A stretch of DNA of 64,000 nt from an uncultured Nitrososphaerales archaeon (GTDB lineage: Archaea > Thermoproteota > Nitrososphaeria > Nitrososphaerales > Nitrososphaeraceae). Position numbers and translations under genes: made by a program. This document shows, piece by piece, positions 23,694-54,388 of this stretch (position 1 is the first letter of the stretch; every line of letters begins with the position of its first letter). The stretch lies in assembly GCA_963709405.1 (NCBI GenBank), contig CAVPXM010000013.1, positions 1 to 64,000 on the forward strand, in the 5' to 3' direction. A model generated the notes under the pieces. The model had not been told where the DNA came from and did not search any database. It saw only the letters and a program-made list of their open reading frames with translations.

Positions 23694-23804
23694 CTACTTT
23701 CCTTCCTTCCTAATTATGATGTTAGAATCTTTAACATCCAGCAACATACTGTCACCAACCTTTAATCTTAAATCCCTTATGACGTGGGAAGGGATGGCAA
23801 TCAT
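23694..23804 (-). pseudogene. AbrB/MazE-like DNA-binding domain, C-terminal half
   Basis: Manual translation MIAIPSHVIRDLRLKVGDSMLLDVKDSNIIIRKEGK*. Confidence 0.65.
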
Positions 23805-23805
23805 A

Positions 23806-24104
23806 ATACAAGGAAATTGGTTCTTCTAGAAGATAAATTCCCTGCATCATTCTCATACTCGTTACTTTTTTGATGCTAATGTCAAGTGCTTTTTCAATCA
23901 GCTTTTTGATTATCTTTCTATCTTCTACGTCGGAAGTCTTTAGTAGTCTTTTGACATGCTCTGAGAACTTGTGTGCTTCCTCTTCTTCCAATTCTGAGGG
24001 AAAGAAAACTAGGTTTCTTCCATCAGTTACAATAAGTTTTCCATTACTTCTGTAGGAAGAGGTTGTGTTCTCTGTTACCGCCTCTATTATTTCTATACTC
24101 TCTG
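23806..24104 (-). repeat. 299-bp inverted near-identical copy of 48275-48573 (internal piece of the 582-aa gene)
   Basis: Direct comparison: same length, three mismatches noticed; ORF 23752-23991 repeats EEEEAHKFSEHVKRLL... Confidence 0.95.
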
Positions 24105-25124
24105 ATTACTTAATGTTTATTTCTAATTTGACGAAAGTTTTGGAGTCTGGACCTAATATCTAAGTCAAGTATTAAATTGTTATTTATGATTGTAGATGAA
24201 CTAATCCACTACAAAGGATAAACCAAATAATCCGTTTAATCTGAATAGTCAATGATAATATTTTACTATTCTTTAGTCGATAATACAAACTGCATAAAAG
24301 CTCAACCCACTTAAATGAATATTACACTAAATAAACACAAGAAATAAACCATAACAAAAGATAATCGCATATAATGCAGAGCATAGGCTAAAGGAAAGCA
24401 CAATTTAAATAAATTGGCGACAAAATAGAATCTCAGCATTATAATATCTGCTAAGCTCGATCGCGGAAAATCGCTATGATCGGTTGACATCGGACGTGCA
24501 GAAGTTAACCGGAAAACCAAGTATGAGCGTTCGAGAGTATGTAACTGGGCATCCTGAGGTATTTTCCAACTAGTCTTCTTCCTGGGACCTCAGCTTTGGT
24601 AAGTAATCGACTTCAGTCATACCGGCCCACTCCTAGTGAAGTCCTACAGTCTGCTTCTCTTTTGAGATCTTGGCATTTTTGTTCCATTGCTTGGAGATCG
24701 TTATTAGCTATCAGAAAGTTTAATCACATGTTACCCCGAATTTCTTAAATAGACATTTTCTTTATTATTGAGAAATGCCTCCTTTTGGATTTGGCACGAA
24801 AGAACAGTCTCAGTCCTTTGCCACTGATATAACAGATATAGAAGATTTAGGAGACCAGGGAAATATTTACTATAACGAAATCTTGCTAGTATAGCATACG
24901 CTATACCTGGTCTGTCTATATAGAGTAAGTGCTCAAAAGATTTGGAATAACTTATCCTGTATAACTAGATAGTGACCATTGAACTTGGAATGCATATGGA
25001 AATAATTATTTGGCCCAGATTTTACTTGATTGATACTCAAGGAAATGCTAACAACGGCTAGGATAGCGATGTAACAATAACAGTAAGTATCATGGAATAC
25101 GGCACAGCAAATAGAAGAAGATTT

Positions 25125-43872: not shown

Positions 43873-44130
43873 TTATAAAATCTCTAGGCATATTCCTGCA
43901 GCATAATTGAAAGCGTGGCGACATTTGCACCTGCGAGTATTGTGGTCATGTACCGAAAATTTATGATGGCATGTACGATATTCGCAGATTGGTTCTACTT
44001 GTTGACCGTATACATCAATAACCTTTGATTGGTGTTGCCCCGCTGATGATTGTTCTATTACTATTGTGACAGGAGAGTTTTTCTCTAAAAATGCAGAGTT
44101 TGTCTTTGCTAATGTCTCCGATTCAACCAT
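43873..44130 (-). CDS. Small Cys/His-rich hypothetical protein
   Basis: CEYRTCHHKFSVH...CKCRH. Confidence 0.55.
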   Translation of the reverse strand: MVESETLAKTNSAFLEKNSPVTIVIEQSSAGQHQSKVIDVYGQQVEPICEYRTCHHKFSVHDHNTRRCKCRHAFNYAAGICLEIL

Positions 44131-44340: not shown

Positions 44341-46146
44341 CTATTCTAACTTTCCTTCTGTTAATGGTCCTATTGGAATCTGCTCTCTTCTTAGTTTGAG
44401 TTTATTGAATATATCTGCAGATGATTGCTGTGGTGCTGTCTCCTCCTCTTTTATTTCTATACCAATCTCACTCTTTATTACGTCTCTTCCTTCTCTTGCA
44501 CCGATGAGTATTATCTGTGCATTTTGATAGTCTATGAATTTTGTATCTTTGGAAAGAGACACAAACCTTACAGCTTCATCAAATTCATTTAAGAGCCTAT
44601 CCCAAAATTCGATACGATTATAGCTCGATGTTGCTTTTGCTAAAGTATGGCCTGTATCCAGAAGAAGAATGAGAAAGAGGATGATAAAAAGGATAATCGC
44701 ACCATCATAACCATTCCAGATGAATTGTGGGATGAGATTAAAGTAATTTTACCCAGAGAGAAACCACTCAAAACAGTGGGTCGGCCAATTGTACCATACA
44801 GAAGGGTACTTGATGGAGTTTTATACATCCTTAGAACTGGGTGCCAATGGAAGATGCTACCCAAAGAGTATGGATCGGGTTCCACATGCCATAGAAGGTT
44901 TCAGGAATGGAATAAACTGGATGTTTTCAAAAAGACATGGGTTCGATTACTGAAAATATATGATCGAATCATTGGTATCAACTGGACATGGCAATCAATC
45001 GATAGTATGGCAATCAATCGATAGTATATCCATAAAATCGCCTTTAGGGGGGCGATGACCGGAAATAATCCCACGGACAGGAGCAAACTGGGCACAAAAA
45101 GACACATTTTAACAGACAAAGAAGGTATACCGCTTTCGGCGGTCATTTCATCTGCTAGTACCCATGACATTAAACTGGTAATAGATATGGTTGATAATTC
45201 AGTTATTAAAAAGCCGTCATCATCATCCAAACCGAAATCAAGAAGAAAGGGAAGAAGGAGAAGGTTACAACATCTATGTCTTGACAAAGCATATAATTCC
45301 ACACAAGAAGAACAGGAACTAATCAGGCGGGGATATGTTACTGCACATTAGTCCCAAAAGAAAGAAGGGTGAAAAAGAGGAGGAGGTCAAGACGGAAACG
45401 CAACCTTCCTTAAACCGGAAAAAACATTCTGCAAAAAGATGGGTTGTGGAAAGGACAAACTCATGGCACAACAGGTTCAGAAAACTGTTCACACGGTATG
45501 AAAAGAAGGCAGAGAACTACCTTGGACTGGTACAGTTCTCCTGTTTTATGATCATCTGTAGAAAGATAATTTTGGGATAGGTTCTAAGACTTCTTGTGGA
45601 TATTTTGGAGGTTCTTCTGTACTAGGAAGATTTGTTGGTCTTGCTATTTTGGGATTCATTACCGAAATAACATAACTTGCTTCTTTTTCTATACCTAATT
45701 CTTTTTGAGCTTCTCCTGGCTCTTTTGGCATTTCAAGGACGTAGGCTAATTCTGTATGATTTTGATGCTTTACAATAGCATACTTTCCTTCTCCAACTGG
45801 TCTTGCAGCATCACCTCTTCTAAATTCATCCGATGAAAGCGCCTTTGTAAGCTCATTGGTATCTTTAAAAATACCACAAACTCTGGCCCAATACCGTTCA
45901 GATGCTCTAGCTTCAGTCTTTCTGTCTTCGGGAAGTGATTTTTTGCCTATAATAAAAAGCCTGTATAGCTGGCTCTATTCTGCTCGGGTGCAGTTACCAT
46001 AAAGAAGCGTCGAACATCCTCAATACCCTTTACCTCTTCAGCAGCTTCTTTGGCCTATAGAAAAAGTATATGTCGCCTTGCTCTAGAATTTCAGCTTCAT
46101 TATTATTGTCGTTAACCTGCTTTCCTTGTTCTTCTTGTTGATTCAC
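44341..46146 (-). pseudogene. Conserved hypothetical protein interrupted by IS5 copy 2
   Basis: DIYFF..., RLFIIGKKSLP, ARPVGEGKYAI, AYVLEMPKEPGEAQKELGI before the IS; ...PKYPQEVL|NEFDEAVRFVSL... rejoins across it. Confidence 0.8.
44593..45584 (+). mobile_element. IS5-family element, copy 2, inactivated
   Basis: Near-identical to 6213-7184, TAA duplication; 19-bp tandem duplication ATGGCAATCAATCGATAGT and a 1-nt insertion (992 vs 972 bp). Confidence 0.95.
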
Positions 46147-46382
46147 CTCAATCTAGCTCTCCTAATTTATTAAAAGCGACAAATTACATTCTTCACAAAA
46201 GTAGTATAGCCTATCAAAATCATATGACAGCGTCATTATATCGTAGCGCGAGGACATTCTATCTCTGTCTCTATTTCTGGTGATTCCCCCCTCACGTTGC
46301 AAAGTCTGTTGCTGTAAAGCAAGCTCCTTGCTCATACTAAAACTCCTGTTATCATCATCCTTATTATAGTCTGAAACACGGA

Positions 46383-46456
46383 GCGGGAAGGGAGAGAGTG
46401 GTATAGTACTGAGTGCGTTCGGTACTATACCAACATGCTATCCTCTCTCTCCCCGC
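46383..46456 (+). other. GC-rich nested inverted repeat / long hairpin upstream of the radA cassette
   Basis: Inner stem TGGTATAGTACTGA-N6-TCGGTACTATACCA; outer stem GCGGGAAGGGAGAG / CTCTCTCTCCCCGC. Confidence 0.8.
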
Positions 46457-46475
46457 CCCATAGTATCTAGCCTCG

Positions 46476-46483
46476 TTATATAT
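46476..46483 (+). promoter_or_regulatory. Putative TATA box of the radA cassette
   Basis: TTATATAT about 40 bp upstream of the ATG at 46521. Confidence 0.5.
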
Positions 46484-46520
46484 CAGTCAAAGTAGATCAT
46501 GCATCAAGTCAATAAAAATT

Positions 46521-47528
46521 ATGTCTCATGTCAGCGATCTACAGCTAGATGATATACCGGGAGTACAGCCACATCTAATAAGTAAGCTGAGACAAGCTGG
46601 TATCCAGTCAGTCCTTGATCTAGCTGTATCTGTCCCCCAGGAGCTTGCTGCAGGCGGAGAAGGTACCATAATTTCCGCCGATACAGAAGTCATATCAGAA
46701 TTGGTATTGAAAGCCAAAAAGGCTCTAATTGACTCGGGGGCACTTATCAAAGAATTCTCTACTGCTGACCAAGTGTTAGAGAGAAGAAAATCTCTTGTCA
46801 GATTTACCACAGGTTCTAAAAACCTTGATGACTTTTTGAAAGGAGGAGTAGAATCCCAAGCTATAACAGAACTCGCTGGAGAATTTGGTTCAGGAAAGAG
46901 CCAAATATGTCATGCGTTATGCGTTACTGCTGCTAAAGGAACTAGGGGTCAAATTAACAGTATAATATTTGTAGATACTGAGAATACTTTTCGACCAGAA
47001 AGGATTCACCAAATAGCTGAGGCCAGGGGGCTTGATTCAGACGAAATAATGAAAAAAGTGTTTGTGTGTAAAATAGTTAATAGTGCTCAGCTAGAAGCCC
47101 TGATAAGAAACCTTGGCAAGTCAATTGAAGAGTATGAAGCTAGACTTGTTATTGTTGACAGTATTATCTCACTTCACAGAGCAGAGTATTCTGGCAGAGA
47201 AACACTAGCTGAAAGACAGCAGAGACTTAATGTCATGTTGCATAAACTCATTCGCTTAGCAGAGATATACAATATAGCCGTAGTGCTGACAAATCAAGTT
47301 CAATCCTCGCCGGATAATACCTATTCATTGAGAGCTACTGGCGGCAATATTATGGGCCATGCATGTACCTACAGAATTTTCCTAAGAAAGATCGGGCGAG
47401 ATAGAATGGCAATAATGGTTGATTCCCCACACCATGCATACGACCAAGTTAAATTTACAATAACTGAGAAAGGGGTAGAAAATAGTGAAGCAAAAATAGC
47501 AATAGAAGGTAGCGAATCAGGGTGGTAG
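46521..47528 (+). CDS. radA: RadA recombinase paralog, full length with HhH N-domain
   Basis: DIPGV HhH, FTTGS polymerization motif, Walker A GEFGSGKS, Walker B LVIVDS, LAERQQ, TNQV, GGNIMGHA. Confidence 0.95.
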   Translation: MSHVSDLQLDDIPGVQPHLISKLRQAGIQSVLDLAVSVPQELAAGGEGTIISADTEVISELVLKAKKALIDSGALIKEFSTADQVLERRKSLVRFTTGSKNLDDFLKGGVESQAITELAGEFGSGKSQICHALCVTAAKGTRGQINSIIFVDTENTFRPERIHQIAEARGLDSDEIMKKVFVCKIVNSAQLEALIRNLGKSIEEYEARLVIVDSIISLHRAEYSGRETLAERQQRLNVMLHKLIRLAEIYNIAVVLTNQVQSSPDNTYSLRATGGNIMGHACTYRIFLRKIGRDRMAIMVDSPHHAYDQVKFTITEKGVENSEAKIAIEGSESGW

Positions 47529-47532
47529 TGGT

Positions 47533-49281
47533 ATGAGCCCTAACGAAATACTTTATCCTGACCCACATATAATTCCAGTACCACCTTCACCATCTTACCA
47601 ACAACCAATACCTCTCGTGACACTATCTGAGCTAATTCCAGGCAAGTATGTATCTACAACAGCAAGAATTGTTTACGTCAAGACTGTGGAAAGACAGGAT
47701 GCTCTTGGAAGCAAAACAATTTTTTCTGGAATATTAGAAGATTCTACTTTCAAGGTTCCTTTTATTAGCCACAAAATTTCATATCCTCTGATAAGAAATT
47801 CTATTTATAAGTTCAATTCTTCATACGTACATGAATTTCCTGTTGATAAATCTCTATTACTTGTACTGACTGAACATACAAAGATTGACTCAAAGAACGT
47901 TGAAGATTATAGAGATTTCATTTGGAGTCCAAAGATAGAATCAATAAAAAGACCAGTTAGAAGTGTTAGTTTGAACGGAATAATAACTACTGTACATAAC
48001 AATTCTGGGCTTATTAAAAGATGCAACAAATGTAAATCAATAATTTATGATACTTGTCCAAACAAATGTCCTTTAGATCAAGGCTGGGGTTGGGACCTAA
48101 GAGTTTCTTCTAGAGTGTATGATGGCTCAGGCTCAATTAAGATGGTTTTGACTAAAGACATAGCATCAAGAGTTTTGCATAGAAACCTAAGTGAGCTAAT
48201 TTTACTTGCATCACAGGATAAACCCCTGACGCAGAACATACAACAGCAATCGTCCTCTGTAAAAATAAAAATTCCAGAGAGTATAGAAATAATAGAGGCG
48301 GTAACAGAGAACACATCCTCTTCCTACAGAAGTAATGGAAAACTTATTGTAACTGACGGAAGAAACCTAGTTTTCTTTCCCTCAGAATTGGAAGAAGAGG
48401 AAGCACACAAGTTCTCAGAGCATGTCAAAAGACTACTAAAGACTTCCGACGTAGAAGATAGAAAGATAATCAGAAAGCTGATTGAAAAAGCACTTGACAT
48501 TAGCATCAAAAAAGTAACGAGTATGAGAATGATGCAGGGAATTTATCTTCTAGAAGAACCAATTTCCTTGTATAGATGTGAAAGGGCAAAACTATACCTT
48601 GGATTTTCTATTAGAGTGAGTTTGATAGATGACGGTATAGTCACAGTCGAAGCAACCCCCCAAGCCTACGTCAGAGAAAGTGTACTTGATTATGTTAAAC
48701 TAAGAAGAGAAAGAGGGGCAACTGCAAATGCCGTAGTACGTAATTTGTTGACATATAGAAACAAGGTAATAGTTGCACCATCTGGAAATTACGGCTGTAT
48801 TGTCGATGTCGTTGCCAAAAAGGCGGGGAACCAACAGGTATCTAACACTGACAATAGGAATTTGGTAGAATTCTGGAAACAAGTATACGGTATTGAGATT
48901 TCACCTGATGAAATTCCTCTACTAAAAGTAAAGATGATGAATTCTGAAAATGTTTTTACTTATCCCCCTAGTATGTCCTTTTTTGGTAATGATTCTTTAC
49001 TTATTTACGCAAATGTCCAGAGATTTATTGAAAATAAAAAATATAACCTAAAAGCAAAAATGGAAGATGTTGTCAGAGAAATACTACAGCAAGATCTAGC
49101 TATTGGCTCCGTAAAGCTAGAAGTAGAGGGATTAGCTGCTTCCCAACATTCGGATGTACAAAGCCAGCTCCTGCATGAAATAAGACAAAAATTGTTTGGA
49201 AGGAATGCTACAGCAAGAGGCTCAATTATGTTTGTACACGATGAGCTATGGTTTTTTCCTAATCAGATACAGCTTTTATAA
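47533..49281 (+). CDS. RPA-like OB/Zn-finger protein carrying an Argonaute-like N-L1-PAZ insertion
   Basis: OB1 aa ~28-120; OB2 with SGLIKRCNKC...CPNKC...DLRVSSRVYDGSG; L1-like LYLGFSIRV...RESVLDY; PAZ-like NLVEFWKQVYGIEI..DEIPLLKV...FTYPPS. Confidence 0.72.
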   Translation: MSPNEILYPDPHIIPVPPSPSYQQPIPLVTLSELIPGKYVSTTARIVYVKTVERQDALGSKTIFSGILEDSTFKVPFISHKISYPLIRNSIYKFNSSYVHEFPVDKSLLLVLTEHTKIDSKNVEDYRDFIWSPKIESIKRPVRSVSLNGIITTVHNNSGLIKRCNKCKSIIYDTCPNKCPLDQGWGWDLRVSSRVYDGSGSIKMVLTKDIASRVLHRNLSELILLASQDKPLTQNIQQQSSSVKIKIPESIEIIEAVTENTSSSYRSNGKLIVTDGRNLVFFPSELEEEEAHKFSEHVKRLLKTSDVEDRKIIRKLIEKALDISIKKVTSMRMMQGIYLLEEPISLYRCERAKLYLGFSIRVSLIDDGIVTVEATPQAYVRESVLDYVKLRRERGATANAVVRNLLTYRNKVIVAPSGNYGCIVDVVAKKAGNQQVSNTDNRNLVEFWKQVYGIEISPDEIPLLKVKMMNSENVFTYPPSMSFFGNDSLLIYANVQRFIENKKYNLKAKMEDVVREILQQDLAIGSVKLEVEGLAASQHSDVQSQLLHEIRQKLFGRNATARGSIMFVHDELWFFPNQIQLL

Positions 49282-49282
49282 T

Positions 49283-50072
49283 ATGTCATTTAACATGCAT
49301 TCTGCGTTAGAGCAATTCAATGAACATAGAAACACTTTGAAGATGACAACGGGATCTGCAGACCTTGACTCACTTATAGATGGTATACAGGAAGGTCTAT
49401 TCTATCTGTTTTATGGCAATAATCGCTTGGCTCTAGATGCACTAGTCTATACATTTCTTGTCAACTGTGTGCTGCCAATAAAACAAAGATATGGCTTTGA
49501 GTCAATGGCAGTTTGTCTTAATAATGTAGATTATTGTGATCAAAGAAAGACAGCTGCACTAAGCCCAGAGAAAATAGGAGTTGGCAGCAAAATGTGCTAA
49601 TATAGACCCAAAGATTATTTTTAAGAACCTATATGTTCACCCCGCATATAACCAGCAGCATCAACTAACGGTAGCAGAGCAAGTTGCTGACCTAATAGAA
49701 TCTAACAATGACATAAACCTGCTGGTAGTGAATAACATAACGAAATTCTTCCGCGAATCAAAAAATAAAATGGAAACTGCCAATATTCTAAAGGAAGTAG
49801 TAGGGATAATTAGCAGGGCCCGTACCAAAAACAAAGTGGCTGTGGCGTGTACTGGAGATGCAAATACAACGGCCAAAGGAATAATACCACGACCAATTGG
49901 TGGTATATACTTAAAACATACAGCAAATGTAATTGTACATTTCAAAGAATTCTCCAAGACCTCCGGTATCCCTTCATTTAAGGCCACGCTAATAAAGCAT
50001 CAATACACAAAGACTCCAAAATCTGCAGTTATGTATGTAAGAAAAGCTGGGGGAATGATGCTTTTAGATTGA
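49283..50072 (+). pseudogene. Inactive RadA/Rad51-like ATPase, one frameshift near 49580 (may be a sequence error)
   Basis: MTTGSADLDSLIDGIQEG RecA-fold start, Walker A replaced by FYGNNRLALD, Walker B LLVVNN, PRPIGGIYLKH. Confidence 0.8.
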
Positions 50073-50085
50073 GAGGTGTTGGAAA

Positions 50086-50445
50086 ATGGGCAGAATAACA
50101 CCATCATTTCGTCAATTGTATGAAGAAATAATATCAGAGCTAAGAACAGAGCTGCAGGCAGCGCTTGTAGATCTAGGCCACAAAAGTGCCTTTGACCTTC
50201 TGTTAAAAGAAGCCTGGAATCCGGAGCAGGCGGCTATGGGGAATTCTACGTTACCAACAGTAAGCGACAAACTTAACTTCATGGCATCTATCCATAATAG
50301 AAAACTAATTGCGGCATTATCAAGAGAATTAAAAGAAAAGGATTTGGAGATACAAGAACTCAGACAGAATATCAACTCGCTTGAAAATAAAATAAATGCT
50401 TTGGCTACTAAAACCAAACAAGTGGAAAAACAGGAGGTCCAATAA
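50086..50445 (+). CDS. arCOG07300-like small helical partner of PolB2
   Basis: MGRITPSFR N-terminus, position directly before PolB2, GAGGTG SD. Confidence 0.75.
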   Translation: MGRITPSFRQLYEEIISELRTELQAALVDLGHKSAFDLLLKEAWNPEQAAMGNSTLPTVSDKLNFMASIHNRKLIAALSRELKEKDLEIQELRQNINSLENKINALATKTKQVEKQEVQ

Positions 50446-52637
50446 CGACGACCCGTTGCACTGGATGGCTTCTTGATGTATCTATTGACAACGATCATGC
50501 AATACTATGGATAAAGACCGAAGATGGACAAATCCTTAAACTAAGAGACTCATATCATCCAGGATTCTATATATTACCAAGAAACGAATCCGATGAATTA
50601 CATCTTTTTCAAATTCTATCTAGAGAAGAAGATATAACGGTAAGGGAGGAAAACAAGCTTACAAACCTTTTTGATAGTAGGAAGCAAACAAGACTAATTT
50701 ACGTACAATTACATTCCTTAAGATATTATCAATCTCTGCTAAAGAAGCTAGCTGAACATTCTCAAGTAAAGCAATTGTTCAATGCAGACCTTTTACACGT
50801 CCAACAATATCTCTTTACTAAATTAAAAATTGAACCTACAAGCAAAGTGAAGGTAGAATACAATGGATCAAAGCTACTTGGAGCAGATAAGGTTGATGAC
50901 ACCGATGATTTACATTCTCCCCCGTTTTCATTACTATATTTTGACCTTCATACGTATTCAGGAATACTTGCTTCAGATGACGCTATCAGGATGATTAAGG
51001 TAAGATATGAACAAAACGATGTCATATTTAATAATAGTGAAGAAAAGGTAATTTTGCAACAGTTCTCTGATTGTGTTCACGAAAAAAATCCTGACATTAT
51101 TGTTTGCATGGACAATTATGATGATGGTAAAGTGCTTCGGTATCTATTTGCCAGAGCAAAGAAGATTGGATTTCATTTGCTGCTTGGAAGGGATGCAGAA
51201 TTCAACGGAAGGATTTGCATCAGCAACAGTAGTTATAGAAAGACAACATACTTTGATGAATTCGGGTTTGCTGGATTAATAGAGCGAGCAAGATTTGGCT
51301 TTCTTCCTTTGGATTTGGCAGCCAAATATAGTATAAACCGTCTAATCGATGGCAGGAATTGTTTTGAACTAATTCAGAGAGAATTTATTATTCCTTCTAG
51401 GGGCAACAATCATGAGCATGTCAGAACTGTAGAGCAAATAATTTCAGGAGATAAGGGGGCTATGATAATTTCTCCGCAAATAGGTCTGCATGAAAATGTG
51501 CTTGCTTTAGACTATGATAGTGAATATGCAAATCTAATTGTAAACCACAATTTGAGCTATGAAACTGTTGGCGGGGAAACCATCCATCATCCAAAGAAAG
51601 GATTACTTCCTAGCATAGTTGAGCGATTCCTCAAAAGACGACTATATTTTAAAAAATTGTTAAAAGAAATACCCAGAGACAGTATAGAATCTGTATGGTG
51701 TGAGCAAAGAGTAAATTCACTAAAGAATATACTTGTTTGCCTTTATGGTTCAACTGGTTCTCTTTGGAATAGGTATGGAAATGTGCTTGCATTTGAGGAA
51801 ATCAATAGGCTATCTCGAGGAGTACTGATAAAAACAAAAGATATTGTACAATGGCTAGGTTATGAGCTAGTATATGCAGATACTGACTCTGTATTTATCA
51901 AGAGAACAGAATCTGCTAGAGATTATAATGAAGCTATAGGTACCCTTTCAAAGCAAACTGGTCTTTCAATATCAATTGACTACCATTACAAGTTTTTAGT
52001 TTTATTACCATTAGAAGCAGATGAAAGGATAGAAGTACTCAAACATTACTTTGGAATTACTTTTGACGGTGAGCTAGTGGTTAGAGGTATAGAGATAAGA
52101 AGACACGACGTCCCCGCTTTTATAAAGCAATTTCAAACCAACCTTCTTTATACGCTATTTGATTGCAAAGATTCATCTGAAATACTATCAAAAGGATATG
52201 AAAATGCTCTTTTACTTGTCACTCAAGCGATTGATGCGATCATGACGGGGGAAGGGATTGATGATAAAGATCTTGTAATCTCCAAGTTGCTGAGACAGGA
52301 TATACAAAAATACAAGAGTTTATTCCCCCATGTGTCTGCGGCTATTCAACTAAAAAAGTATCCTCTAAAAGGTGACACAATTCAGTATATTTACACAGAT
52401 TCAAAGCATAACAATCCTCTTTGTAGAGTAGTTCCTATAGAAAATACTAAATCTCTGCCCCAGGACGATAAAGAAAAGTACAAAGAAATGATACTTGATG
52501 CTGCAGAAACAGTTCTAGGATTTTTTGGCTTTGATAGGACTGTTTACAGCAATTTCAAGAGGAATACGAGAAGAAAAAAGTGGTATGAAGAATTAAGAGA
52601 ACAGAGAGTAAGTGACATAGAAACGGAGATGCTTTGA
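50442..52637 (+). CDS. polB2: Family B DNA polymerase, PolB2-like (frame open from 50442, about 731 aa)
   Basis: GWLLDV N-terminus in frame upstream of the listed ORF; DYDSEY, KNILVCLYG, YADTDS, VRGIEIRRHD; degenerate exonuclease motifs. Confidence 0.88.
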   Translation: MTTTRCTGWLLDVSIDNDHAILWIKTEDGQILKLRDSYHPGFYILPRNESDELHLFQILSREEDITVREENKLTNLFDSRKQTRLIYVQLHSLRYYQSLLKKLAEHSQVKQLFNADLLHVQQYLFTKLKIEPTSKVKVEYNGSKLLGADKVDDTDDLHSPPFSLLYFDLHTYSGILASDDAIRMIKVRYEQNDVIFNNSEEKVILQQFSDCVHEKNPDIIVCMDNYDDGKVLRYLFARAKKIGFHLLLGRDAEFNGRICISNSSYRKTTYFDEFGFAGLIERARFGFLPLDLAAKYSINRLIDGRNCFELIQREFIIPSRGNNHEHVRTVEQIISGDKGAMIISPQIGLHENVLALDYDSEYANLIVNHNLSYETVGGETIHHPKKGLLPSIVERFLKRRLYFKKLLKEIPRDSIESVWCEQRVNSLKNILVCLYGSTGSLWNRYGNVLAFEEINRLSRGVLIKTKDIVQWLGYELVYADTDSVFIKRTESARDYNEAIGTLSKQTGLSISIDYHYKFLVLLPLEADERIEVLKHYFGITFDGELVVRGIEIRRHDVPAFIKQFQTNLLYTLFDCKDSSEILSKGYENALLLVTQAIDAIMTGEGIDDKDLVISKLLRQDIQKYKSLFPHVSAAIQLKKYPLKGDTIQYIYTDSKHNNPLCRVVPIENTKSLPQDDKEKYKEMILDAAETVLGFFGFDRTVYSNFKRNTRRKKWYEELREQRVSDIETEML

Positions 52638-52879
52638 TGAAGACAAAAGGAGTTCTCGTGTATATTTCATACATATGAGCTTATCCTATGTATCTGATAA
52701 GTATCCTTAATTGAATCATCATATAAAAAATATCATAAAGGCATTAGAATAACCAAGGACAAAATTAAGAAATATGCTTTTGCCTATGTGCAGTTAATAA
52801 ATTAAGATATATCTTTCAATCAGGTTGGTTCGACTTAAATCTTCAACTGAAATAGCTCCCTAGAGTCACCTTGATACCA

Positions 52880-53275
52880 CGAGCTGTAACTTCTACTGCG
52901 TATCTGAATTTTTTGTCTAATTCAGGTATGATATCTCTCAAACTATTCATACCTTCAACTATACCTGTCGAGGGTGGTAACTATATCAATAATGCTAAAA
53001 TTTTGTCTTCAAGGTTAGCTATAGAAGAAAAGAACAATTTCAGTTCTCTTTCTACATCTTTTAGCCTTTTATCATGAGTTATGACTCTTGGAAATTTGGC
53101 AGCAAATCTAAAATGGTCAGGAGTCTTTTTGCACCAATTCTTACCATAAATTCGTTAGGAATCCTGTAGAAAGAAGAATCAATTTCGACAAAATCAAATA
53201 CTTGAGAATAATAACTTAACCACTTGGAATTTTCCAGATTGAGAGGATAAAATGGTCCTTGCCATGCTGAATAAC
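52880..53275 (-). pseudogene. DUF72 (YecE-like) protein fragment
   Basis: WQGPFYP, LSYYSQVFDFVEIDSSFYRIP, TPDHFRFAAKFPRVITH; frameshift, stop, both ends missing. Confidence 0.85.
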
Positions 53276-53582
53276 ATAATACGTCGTTTACAGAAAAGAC
53301 AATGCACAGTTCGTTCCCATGAATCGATAACTGACAAGTTACTGTAGTATAATACATCATATCTAAGCTATATGTAGCGCAAATCGAGAGCAATTAGAAT
53401 ACAACATTTAATATCCGACCAGGACGCAACTGTTATACTTCAAGCCGATCTCGAATCCTAGAAGTACATCTTATATAATTTATTCCTGTAGTAGGTCTTA
53501 TGGAAGGTGTAAAGAATCATGCATTTATTAGAAATATAGTCTATGGAACACTGCTTTTCCGCCGACAAGAAGGAGAGAAACA

Positions 53583-54388
53583 ATGACCGACCACAAGATC
53601 GGAACACGTGAAGAGTGGCTTGCGGCCAGGCTAGATCTGCTAAAGGCCGAGAAGGAGCTGACGCGACGTAGCGACGAACTGGCGCAGTGGCGGCAGAGGC
53701 TGCCGTGGGTTCGAATTGATAAGGAATACCGTTTCGAGACCGACGAGGGCACCGCGTCCCTAGCCGATCTCTTCAGAGGACGTTCGCAGCTCCTCGTCTA
53801 TCACTTCATGTTCGGCCCCGAGTACACAGGCGGACTGCCCGGCGTGCTCGGCCATCGCGGACGGCTTCAACGGTTTTGCTGTGCATCTCGAACACCACGA
53901 CGTCGCGATGATCGGGGTCTCACGTGCTCCGATCGCCGCGTTGCAGGCCTACAAGCGCCGCATGGGCTGGACGTTCAGGTGGGCCTCGTCGCTGGATAGC
54001 GATTTCAACTATGACTTCAACACGTCGTTCACAGAAGAGCAGCGAGCTCTCCGGCAACCTGTACTATAACTACCACAAGGGTGGCATAACCTCAGGTTCG
54101 GAGGCCGGCTCAGAGGGCAGTCAAGACCGGCGTCAAGCTGATTTGGCGCTGACGCCAAAAGTGTTCGCTGCCATGACCGGAACCGACATCCCCACTTACA
54201 CTCGCGAGGCGCCGGGCATGAGCGCGTTCGCGCTCTCCGACGGCGTCGTCTACCACACCTACTCCACCTACGCTCGCGGTCTCGACGCACTCTGGGGAAT
54301 GTACCAGTGGCTTGACCGCGCACCGAAGGGGCGTAATGAAACTGGGCCATGGTTTCGGCGGCACGACGAGTACACGGAGAATAGCTAA
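53583..54388 (+). pseudogene. DUF899 thioredoxin-like protein, high GC, two frameshifts
   Basis: REEWLAARLDLLKAEKELTR, QLLVYHFMFGP, VYHTYSTYARG, LDRAPKGRNE. Confidence 0.92.

Follow-up and report, generated by a model that had tools for sequence, protein, structure and literature searches.

An RPA-like protein with a predicted Argonaute N-L1-PAZ lobe inside its second OB fold, encoded in an extended PolB2 operon of Nitrososphaeraceae

Introduction

What may an Argonaute N-terminal lobe be doing inside a single-stranded DNA (ssDNA)-binding protein, in an operon for damage tolerance and in a genome where no PIWI domain is found? This question is raised by one gene in a 64,000-nucleotide stretch of DNA from an uncultured archaeon of the family Nitrososphaeraceae (positions 1 to 64,000 of contig CAVPXM010000013.1, assembly GCA_963709405.1), which is referred to below as the window. 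The gene, an open reading frame (ORF) with an ATG start at 47533–49281 (+), encodes 582 amino acids (aa). An earlier note on this DNA, made from its letters alone, described the product as a protein of the replication protein A (RPA) type with an Argonaute-like N-L1-PAZ lobe inserted in its second OB fold; this product, which we call the RPA–Argonaute protein, is the subject of the present analysis.

To our knowledge, PAZ and the N-lobe of Argonaute have been described from guide-directed silencing and defence, where a PIWI domain always acts with them, in cis or in trans. In the present protein the predicted lobe is conserved, free of PIWI and embedded in an RPA, within a translesion and recombination operon.

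Results

The insert is predicted to have the fold of an Argonaute N-terminal lobe

The segment aa 236–541 modelled alone, with 22 homologues in the alignment, gave a predicted local distance difference test score (pLDDT) of 88.2 and a predicted template modelling score (pTM) of 0.82. When this model was compared with the PDB by Foldseek, 44 of the 45 matches listed bore the name of an Argonaute or PIWI protein, and the one left over was 8xih_B. The best match was MILI (9ij4_A, E 8e-12), and the prokaryotic Argonautes (pAgos) KmAgo, PliAgo, MpAgo, CtAgo, TtAgo and MjAgo were among those listed; the query-normalised TM score reached 0.59–0.61, with 344–350 aligned columns, the query having 306 residues. 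The structure comparison, fixed beforehand as a check on the proposal that aa 240–535 are Argonaute N, L1 and PAZ, therefore came out in its favour, and the weak PAZ and pAgo sequence matches described below agree with it. Since these matches were obtained with the lobe alone, it is the whole stretch, and not the PAZ domain only, that resembles the Argonaute N-lobe; by this model aa ~238–537 are predicted to have the N-L1-PAZ(-L2) lobe fold. The boundaries of the N, L1, PAZ and L2 parts (Table 1) were placed from the secondary structure of the model and the Pfam anchor, without residue-level superposition, and the N and L1 labels are based on the whole-lobe structural matches and a pAgo-type hidden Markov model (HMM).

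The full-length AlphaFold2 model (mean pLDDT 80.8) is of low confidence only at aa 1–7, 229–237 and 536–540, the latter two segments being the two joints of the proposed insert. Of the 45 PDB matches listed for it by Foldseek, 9 were of the RPA/OB type and 36 of the Argonaute type, that is, 35 named Argonaute or PIWI proteins and 8xih_B, which is described only as a 'protein-DNA complex'.

The Argonaute signal in the sequence itself is weak but repeated. Pfam PAZ (PF02170) was matched by aa 421–482 with an E value of 0.0022 and, at E ≤ 0.1, by 11 of the 18 aligned homologues (best E 4.2e-5), and the second copy of the cassette on the same contig reached 27.6 bits. The PADLOC model PprPIWI matched aa 252–512 along its positions 33–268 of 666 (E 7.8e-6), and half of the homologues (9/18) matched it as well. 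A scan of Pfam at E ≤ 10 returned no ArgoN, ArgoL1 or ArgoL2, only PAZ and a chance KH-like match. In a HMMER alignment (E 0.2–0.4) the motif LVEFWKxVYGIxVxPDEIPLL was paired with a 21-residue stretch of the Piwi-like 2 PAZ domain (3o7x), so that F447, W448 and Y452 fall on its YY...Y helix. This helix, with aromatic residues five positions apart, presumably corresponds to the tyrosines of eukaryotic PAZ domains that contact the 3' end.

Conservation was assessed in 17 homologues filtered to less than 80% identity. The mean fraction of the most frequent residue was 0.59 for L1, PAZ and OB fold 1 alike and 0.58 for the first part of OB fold 2, so L1 and PAZ are conserved to the same degree as the OB folds. 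The PAZ domain holds 7 of the 21 positions conserved at 95% or more, and the four PAZ residues named in Table 1 are invariant in the set. Position 447 is F, Y or L and position 477 is Y or F; the positions of F447, Y452 and Y477 are mostly aromatic.

No Piwi domain (PF02171) was matched in the 582-aa protein or in its own genome, which is 91% complete, while the control genomes do give matches; in the phylum sample a Piwi match was found in 11 of 401 genomes. Within the own genome, PAZ is matched only in the two copies of the cassette, bar one match at chance level. The absence of MID and PIWI claimed earlier for the protein and the window was thus upheld and could be extended to the genome. 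Lacking these domains, the protein cannot slice, and without PIWI it carries the N-lobe of Argonaute but is not itself an Argonaute protein.

The lobe is predicted to interrupt the second OB fold of a diverged RPA

The part that precedes the insert, aa ~33–228, reads as an archaeal RPA-like span of two OB folds with a zinc ribbon. NCBIfam models of RPA and single-stranded DNA-binding protein (SSB) match aa 33–223 (NF005554, E 4.1e-17; NF004998, E 2.9e-16). A profile of 18 homologues matched the solved OB domain of Ta0387 (2k75) over positions 35–121 (E 2.7e-6) and Pyrococcus abyssi RPA chains over positions 122–229 (E 0.024–0.036), and Foldseek aligned the full-length model to 2k75 with a target-normalised TM score of 0.77. 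In the 17 non-redundant homologues C164, C167 and C175 are each cysteine throughout, and at position 179 cysteine stands in 11, histidine in 4 and glycine in 2; a four-ligand zinc ribbon is predicted in OB fold 2. The two OB folds and the C4 zinc finger of the earlier note are therefore confirmed by the NCBIfam models, by the profile matches and by the cysteine conservation.

The protein resembles the euryarchaeal-type RPAs (P. abyssi RPA, 8aaj, 8oej) in its OB folds, in the Cys-rich ribbon between β1 and β2 of the second OB fold, in the GR..(A/V)(R/K)G motif in β4, in its Foldseek matches (E 1.6e-10 to 7.9e-10) and in a collinear BLASTP alignment with the Geoglobus RPA. It differs from them in carrying ~300 aa of Argonaute lobe where the canonical RPA has a short loop, and in being an accessory protein encoded in a PolB2 operon and not by a core replication gene.

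In the full-length model the first part of OB fold 2 comprises β1 (aa 142–154), the ribbon, β2–β3 (aa 185–206) and two helices (aa 208–227), and the C-terminus forms a helix (aa 542–554) and a hairpin (558–568 and 571–581) with pLDDT of 82–92. When aa 122–232 and aa 541–582 were modelled as separate chains, they docked with a score of 0.81 against 0.00 for the best of 3 controls, a mark that 58 of 80 solved complexes and 2 of 110 mismatched pairs attained, counts that are approximate here since a custom alignment was used. The runs agreed in at least 97% of the contacts, with partner pLDDT of at least 89, and the tightest contacts joined residues 202–205 with 573–575 (β3–β5) and 145–151 with 555–563 (β1–β4). 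Pairing of β1 with β4 and of β3 with β5 is the arrangement by which an OB barrel is closed. By these models the last ~45 aa are predicted to supply β4 and β5 of OB fold 2 and so to give a closed five-stranded barrel, as had been proposed, and the lobe is accordingly placed as an insertion between the OB2 helix and β4.

The insertion topology also has modest independent support from the sequence. The canonical 360-aa Geoglobus RPA was aligned by BLASTP at its positions 112–307 with aa 16–229 (E 5e-13) and, collinearly beyond the insert, at 299–330 with aa 532–563 (E 0.05, or 0.001 for the C-terminal 47 aa alone). A HMMER profile of the C-terminal part fell, below threshold, on IIGREIVVRGNVIE of the P. 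abyssi RPA, directly after the first OB segment of that protein.

Table 1. Coordinates in the window of the RPA–Argonaute gene, its predicted parts and the other genes of the operon
Feature	Position	Strand	Basis
Whole ORF: RPA-like protein with inserted Argonaute N-lobe, 582 aa	47533..49281	+	ORF, homologue searches, model
N-terminal tail, aa 1–34, low model confidence; YPDP..P.P motif kept in closer homologues	47533..47634	+	alignment, model
OB fold 1, aa ~35–121	47635..47895	+	profile and Foldseek matches to 2k75; model strands aa 39–120
OB fold 2, first part, aa ~122–228: β1, zinc ribbon, β2–β3, two helices	47896..48216	+	NCBIfam RPA models, P. abyssi RPA profile, Geoglobus BLASTP, cysteine conservation
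Predicted zinc ribbon, C164, C167, C175, C179	48022–48069	+	within OB fold 2
Linker into the insert, aa 229–239; pLDDT <50 over aa 229–237; least conserved stretch	48217..48249	+	model, conservation
Argonaute N-domain-like, aa ~240–331	48250..48525	+	lobe model, Foldseek, pAgo-type HMM; boundary from model secondary structure
Argonaute L1-like, aa ~332–410	48526..48762	+	lobe model, Foldseek, pAgo-type HMM, conservation; boundary from model secondary structure
Predicted PAZ domain, aa ~411–490; invariant W448, E460, P462, P478	48763..49002	+	Pfam PAZ, alignment to Piwi-like 2 PAZ 3o7x, conservation
L2-like long helix and strand, aa ~491–537, then low-confidence linker, aa 536–540	49003..49143	+	models, Foldseek
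OB fold 2, predicted closing part, aa ~538–582: helix and β4–β5	49144..49278	+	docking model, collinear Geoglobus BLASTP, sub-threshold HMMER domain on P. abyssi RPA
Gene 1, RadA, intact Walker A, cassette-specific paralogue	46521..47528	+	NF003301, 341 bits vs cut-off 259
Gene 3, inactive RadA (iRadA), split by one extra base at 49583	49283..50072	+	Rad51 family matches, motif loss
Gene 4, small 119-aa protein at the position of PPB2 (arCOG07300)	50086..50445	+	position, conservation
Gene 5, B-family polymerase, PolB2 type; frame open from 50445, first ATG/GTG/TTG at 50775	50445..52637	+	Pfam DNA_pol_B, E 1.8e-28

The RPA–Argonaute gene is conserved as a family

The ORF is intact in the window, the opposite strand is closed by many stops, and the motifs quoted from it earlier (SGLIKRCNKC, CPNKC, NLVEFWKQVYGIEISPDEIPLLKV, FTYPPS and LLHEIRQKLFGRNATARG) are all present in its translation. 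A word-indexed search yielded 924 relatives at E ≤ 0.001 among 8000 candidates scored, with taxon labels of Nitrososphaeraceae. The exhaustive search of cluster representatives gave 345 matches at E ≤ 0.001, 75 of them at E ≤ 1e-30, with full-length relatives down to ~25% identity; the labels of the more remote members of the clusters are Thaumarchaeota/Nitrososphaerota, Bathyarchaeota and Thermoprotei, and in one case Methylomirabilota. The gene is thus real and conserved. Every relative for which a source gives a name is called 'hypothetical protein', a search of the ESM Atlas led to nothing but an unnamed cluster of 103 members, the protein's own, and a single-sequence phmmer search of the PDB gave as its sole match a chance-level methyltransferase (E 0.18).

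The Methylomirabilota sequence (P0274, in the cluster of P0132) is a full-length homologue of 34% identity whose label assigns it to a bacterial metagenome-assembled genome, which may reflect a binning error or a transfer to bacteria. In the low-confidence N-terminal tail, a proline-rich motif YPDP..(I/L)P.P at aa 8–20 (window 47554–47592) is invariant in homologues of 47% identity and above; it may serve as a peptide for docking.

The gene lies in an extended PolB2 operon

The RPA–Argonaute gene starts 4 nt after radA, and iRadA follows 1 nt after it, the series being continued by a PPB2-like gene and a PolB2-type polymerase gene (Table 1). In a survey of 39 related loci, taken from contigs of one genome per species, RadA was found upstream in all 29 loci with room for it, iRadA downstream in 34 of 36, a PPB2-like ORF in 24 of 29 and PolB in 20 of 23; the neighbourhood survey that had been suggested for this gene thus revealed a conserved radA and iRadA-PPB2-PolB2 operon. 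The order RPA–Argonaute gene, iRadA, PPB2-like gene is kept even in a relative of 29% identity from another family of the phylum. Beyond the five genes no conservation was found in the flanks among the loci compared.

The Walker A motif of RadA (GEFGSGKSQ) is lost in iRadA, the window's own fragment covering only Walker A and showing the same loss. In three full-length iRadA orthologues (loci L011, L022 and L034) both Walker A and the Walker B aspartate are replaced, and all the aligned iRadA proteins are devoid of RadA's N-terminal domain. The window polymerase reads YFDLHT, which we take to be the counterpart of the Exo I motif FDIET, and an intact YADTDS. Retention of DTD in YADTDS is reported for some TACK PolB2 enzymes (PMC11791011). 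The iRadA-PPB2-PolB2 operon is described as damage-induced and has been modelled as a heteropentameric translesion 'mutasome' that extends distorted primer ends (PMC11791011; PMC4104785), and for PolB2 operons both a role in the damage response and frequent horizontal transfer are reported (PMC11791011).

Judged from gene content and order, the five-gene operon appears to be an extended form of this archaeal 'mutasome'. It shares with the published operon the order of the three downstream genes, of which the last two are PPB2-like and of PolB2 type, the iRadA without ATPase motifs and the DTD of the polymerase; it differs by two additional conserved upstream genes, an active-looking RadA and the RPA–Argonaute chimera, neither of which appears in the main texts of these reports (PMC11791011; PMC4104785).

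In a lineage of 46% identity (L034 11689–13183, and also L006, L007 and L046), iRadA and a PPB2-like domain form one fused protein, behind which comes another PPB2-like ORF; such fusions match those described in PMC11791011. In a soil RNA-seq library (X20), contigs of 90–99% identity cover 46445–49741 and bridge the junctions of the RPA–Argonaute gene with radA and with iRadA. DNA may be present in libraries of this kind, a contig that spans two genes is no proof of one transcript and the thin cover past 49776 is uninformative, so these contigs are at most a weak hint of co-transcription in a relative.

Copies, decay and distribution

The five-gene unit is present twice on the contig. The second copy, at 66089–72560 (outside the window, ~13 kb past the end of the first), is 80% identical to 46475–52654, and the duplicated unit is exactly the operon. 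In this second copy (loci L002, L003, L008 and L009) the RPA–Argonaute gene is frameshifted near aa 255, and the iRadA and PPB2-like genes are also broken. An isolated 120-aa fragment of the RPA–Argonaute gene (aa 242–361, 86% identical), with an internal TAA and no cassette genes beside it, lies in the window at 23761–24123 (-). With tblastn many short fragments of the cassette PolB were found on contigs C36, C59, C55, C20, C69, C23 and C95 and iRadA fragments on C69 and C20, which suggests further decayed copies of the cassette.

Upstream of the operon, at 44647–45580 (+), there are three pieces of a transposase of the IS4/IS5 type (DUF4096, DDE_Tnp_1). They separate radA from two small minus-strand ORFs (43873–44130 and 44341–44562) that in other loci lie directly upstream of radA, and the insertion has apparently truncated the nearer of them (73 aa here versus 259 aa in locus L013).

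At the family level the gene is present in 37 of 238 Nitrososphaeraceae genomes (a tally that includes the unpublished genomes G692 and G743), in 21 of the 116 of high quality and in 9 of 18 genera; two large genera carry none (0/34 and 0/72 genomes). In the class sample it was found in 3 of 201 genomes and in the phylum sample in 3 of 401. Carriers often have several copies together with fragments that contain internal stops. The family is accessory, patchy, often multicopy and often decayed. The own genome encodes other RadA proteins (on contigs C65 and C63) and other RPA-like proteins (on C21 and C63), and the RPA–Argonaute protein is therefore not the housekeeping RPA.

Discussion

The reading that we consider probable, although by no means assured, is that of an accessory ssDNA-binding RPA–Argonaute chimera acting in RadA/PolB2 damage tolerance, with its OB folds on the template ssDNA and its PAZ domain on a 3' end. 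DNA damage would expose template ssDNA, which would be bound by the OB folds, and the PAZ pocket would grip the free 3'-OH of the stalled primer that PolB2 must extend. Alternatively, the PAZ substrate may be the 3' tip of an ssDNA strand along which the RadA of the cassette polymerises, an option paralleled by the activation of E. coli Pol V through the transfer of RecA from a 3' tip. The junction thus marked would be handed to iRadA-PPB2-PolB2 as the extender of distorted primer ends. The operon context lends circumstantial support to this assignment of 3' end and template. A more specific proposal, which we consider somewhat less likely than not, is that the PIWI-free N-PAZ lobe is the 3'-end sensor of a specialised RPA that couples a dedicated RadA to PolB2, making these two proteins the fifth and sixth components of the mutasome.

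Several observations weigh against this reading. On the side of the lobe, the Pfam PAZ match of 18.4 bits lies below the gathering cut-off of 28.8, and hhalign of the homologue family with four divergent archaeal long pAgos of the phylum gave a probability of 0.3% (E 0.21), with a poor template alignment (18–24% identity) of four sequences in which Pfam finds no PAZ; the sole stretch aligned was the PAZ region. Position 452, where one of the putative pocket residues stands, is K instead of Y in 3 of the 17 homologues. On the RPA side, the NCBIfam scores fall below the curated equivalog cut-offs (62.3 bits versus 447 and 59.7 versus 556), and so far below that the protein must be taken as a diverged relative of RPA, not as an equivalog. 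As for the insertion, the C-terminal 46 columns, used on their own as a profile, gave no significant match beyond the two cassette copies among 17,695 six-frame ORFs of the genome, and against the PDB they returned no RPA, the best match being RPB7 (E 0.44), so the sequence alone is no proof that an RPA OB fold is completed by the C-terminus; the docking pass, for its part, may stem from what the model retains of OB and RPA structures already solved, and it is no demonstration of binding.

The state of the operon counts on the same side. In the window iRadA is frameshifted by the extra base at 49583, while it is a single ORF in related loci. Contigs of three other public runs (X20, X3 and X1) are without the extra base, this form making up all the depth in X20 and X3 and 16.7 of 30.2 in X1, which indicates an assembly error or a strain variant. 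The PolB2 frame, open from 50445, has no ATG, GTG or TTG before 50775 and is there homologous to the N-terminus of its relatives; in the relative L011 PolB2 begins with M at the equivalent place, and the start of the window's PolB2 is possibly lost or non-canonical. The RPA–Argonaute gene itself is broken across reading frames in 10 of the 39 related loci. Given the frameshifted iRadA, the PolB2 without a canonical start and these broken loci, many copies of the cassette may be decaying. Finally, since the PolB2 operons of the literature function with no protein of this kind, it is dispensable for the core PolB2 complex.

A rather unlikely explanation, and still the most serious of the alternatives, keeps the same architecture and makes the lobe a protein scaffold that docks RadA, iRadA, PPB2 or PolB2, only the OB folds touching DNA. 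Argonaute N-lobes that occur apart from MID-PIWI are reported to act by binding a partner, as AfAgo and its N-L1-L2 protein do (PMC10954474), a tight five-gene operon suggests a complex, and L1 is conserved as much as PAZ. The known APAZ and N-L1-L2 partners, however, are without PAZ, which the 582-aa protein keeps together with the conserved aromatic helix (F447, W448, Y452), the Y477-P478 motif and its large share of the most conserved positions, and no PIWI-type partner is found in its own genome.

It is more improbable that the cassette serves a mobile or selfish element for its replication and recombination, or that it is a defence module which senses nucleic acids, with the protein as a dedicated SSB or end-binder. 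Such an origin would fit the patchy presence of the gene, its several copies and many fragments or pseudogenes per genome, the insertion sequence (IS) fragments that adjoin the cassette and the flanks that vary between loci. Nevertheless, the mobile-element reading was set aside: the duplicated unit is just the operon, no inverted repeats were found in 45401–53600, neither an integrase nor a transposase is conserved in the flanking ORF clusters, and a viral structure library returned only OB/SSB-type matches. Frequent horizontal transfer is, moreover, already noted for the published PolB2 operons of the damage response (PMC11791011). As for defence, the PADLOC matches are limited to the pAgo-type one in the lobe and to weak ones of ATPases. 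That the protein is an ordinary replicative RPA with an insert of no special role is hardly credible despite its RPA-like N-terminal 230 aa, being already contradicted by the patchy distribution (not found in 201 of the 238 family genomes, the two large genera included), with the other RPA-like genes of the genome and an insert as conserved as the OB folds speaking against it as well.

If the protein is indeed an accessory RPA–Argonaute chimera, as we favour, it stands apart from each of its known relatives. With the N-terminal lobe of long Argonaute and PIWI proteins it shares the fold of the whole lobe, as predicted by the model (44 of the 45 PDB matches listed, TM score up to 0.61), and the PAZ sequence motif, and it differs from them in being a 582-aa protein without MID or PIWI, in holding the lobe inside another domain and in its context of DNA repair instead of defence or silencing. 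The nearest published cases are of two kinds. The stand-alone APAZ or N-L1-L2 partners of short pAgos (AfAgo partner, PMC10954474; APAZ, PMC2743648) are likewise Argonaute N-lobe material encoded apart from MID-PIWI; as reported, they are without PAZ, always stand beside a PIWI gene and with it rebuild a full Argonaute, whereas here PAZ is present and the genome shows no PIWI. The pAgos with an added N-terminal OB fold (PMC6299218) also combine an OB fold and Argonaute parts in one polypeptide; as described there, they are PIWI-bearing pAgos without PAZ that gained an OB fold, whereas the protein described here would be an RPA that gained N-L1-PAZ, without PIWI. The earlier note knew of no description of such an architecture, and our full-text searches of the literature likewise returned none, neither of an RPA–Argonaute-lobe protein nor of a PolB2 operon with a PAZ domain. 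It goes unmentioned in the main texts, in the parts consulted, of PMC2743648, PMC6299218, PMC11791011 and PMC4104785; the supplementary neighbourhood tables of PMC11791011 may list the gene family.

If the favoured reading is true, the Argonaute lobe would acquire a new biological role, and the recently modelled PolB2 mutasome would gain two parts. The archaeal damage-tolerance machine would thereby have a concrete way to find the stalled primer end. The protein would also be a compact natural binder of ssDNA and 3' ends alike, which might be of use as a reagent. Under the more specific proposal, the half of Argonaute that holds the end of the guide would have a role in DNA repair, and the N-lobe may have circulated as an independent end-binding module among the DNA-metabolism proteins of archaea.

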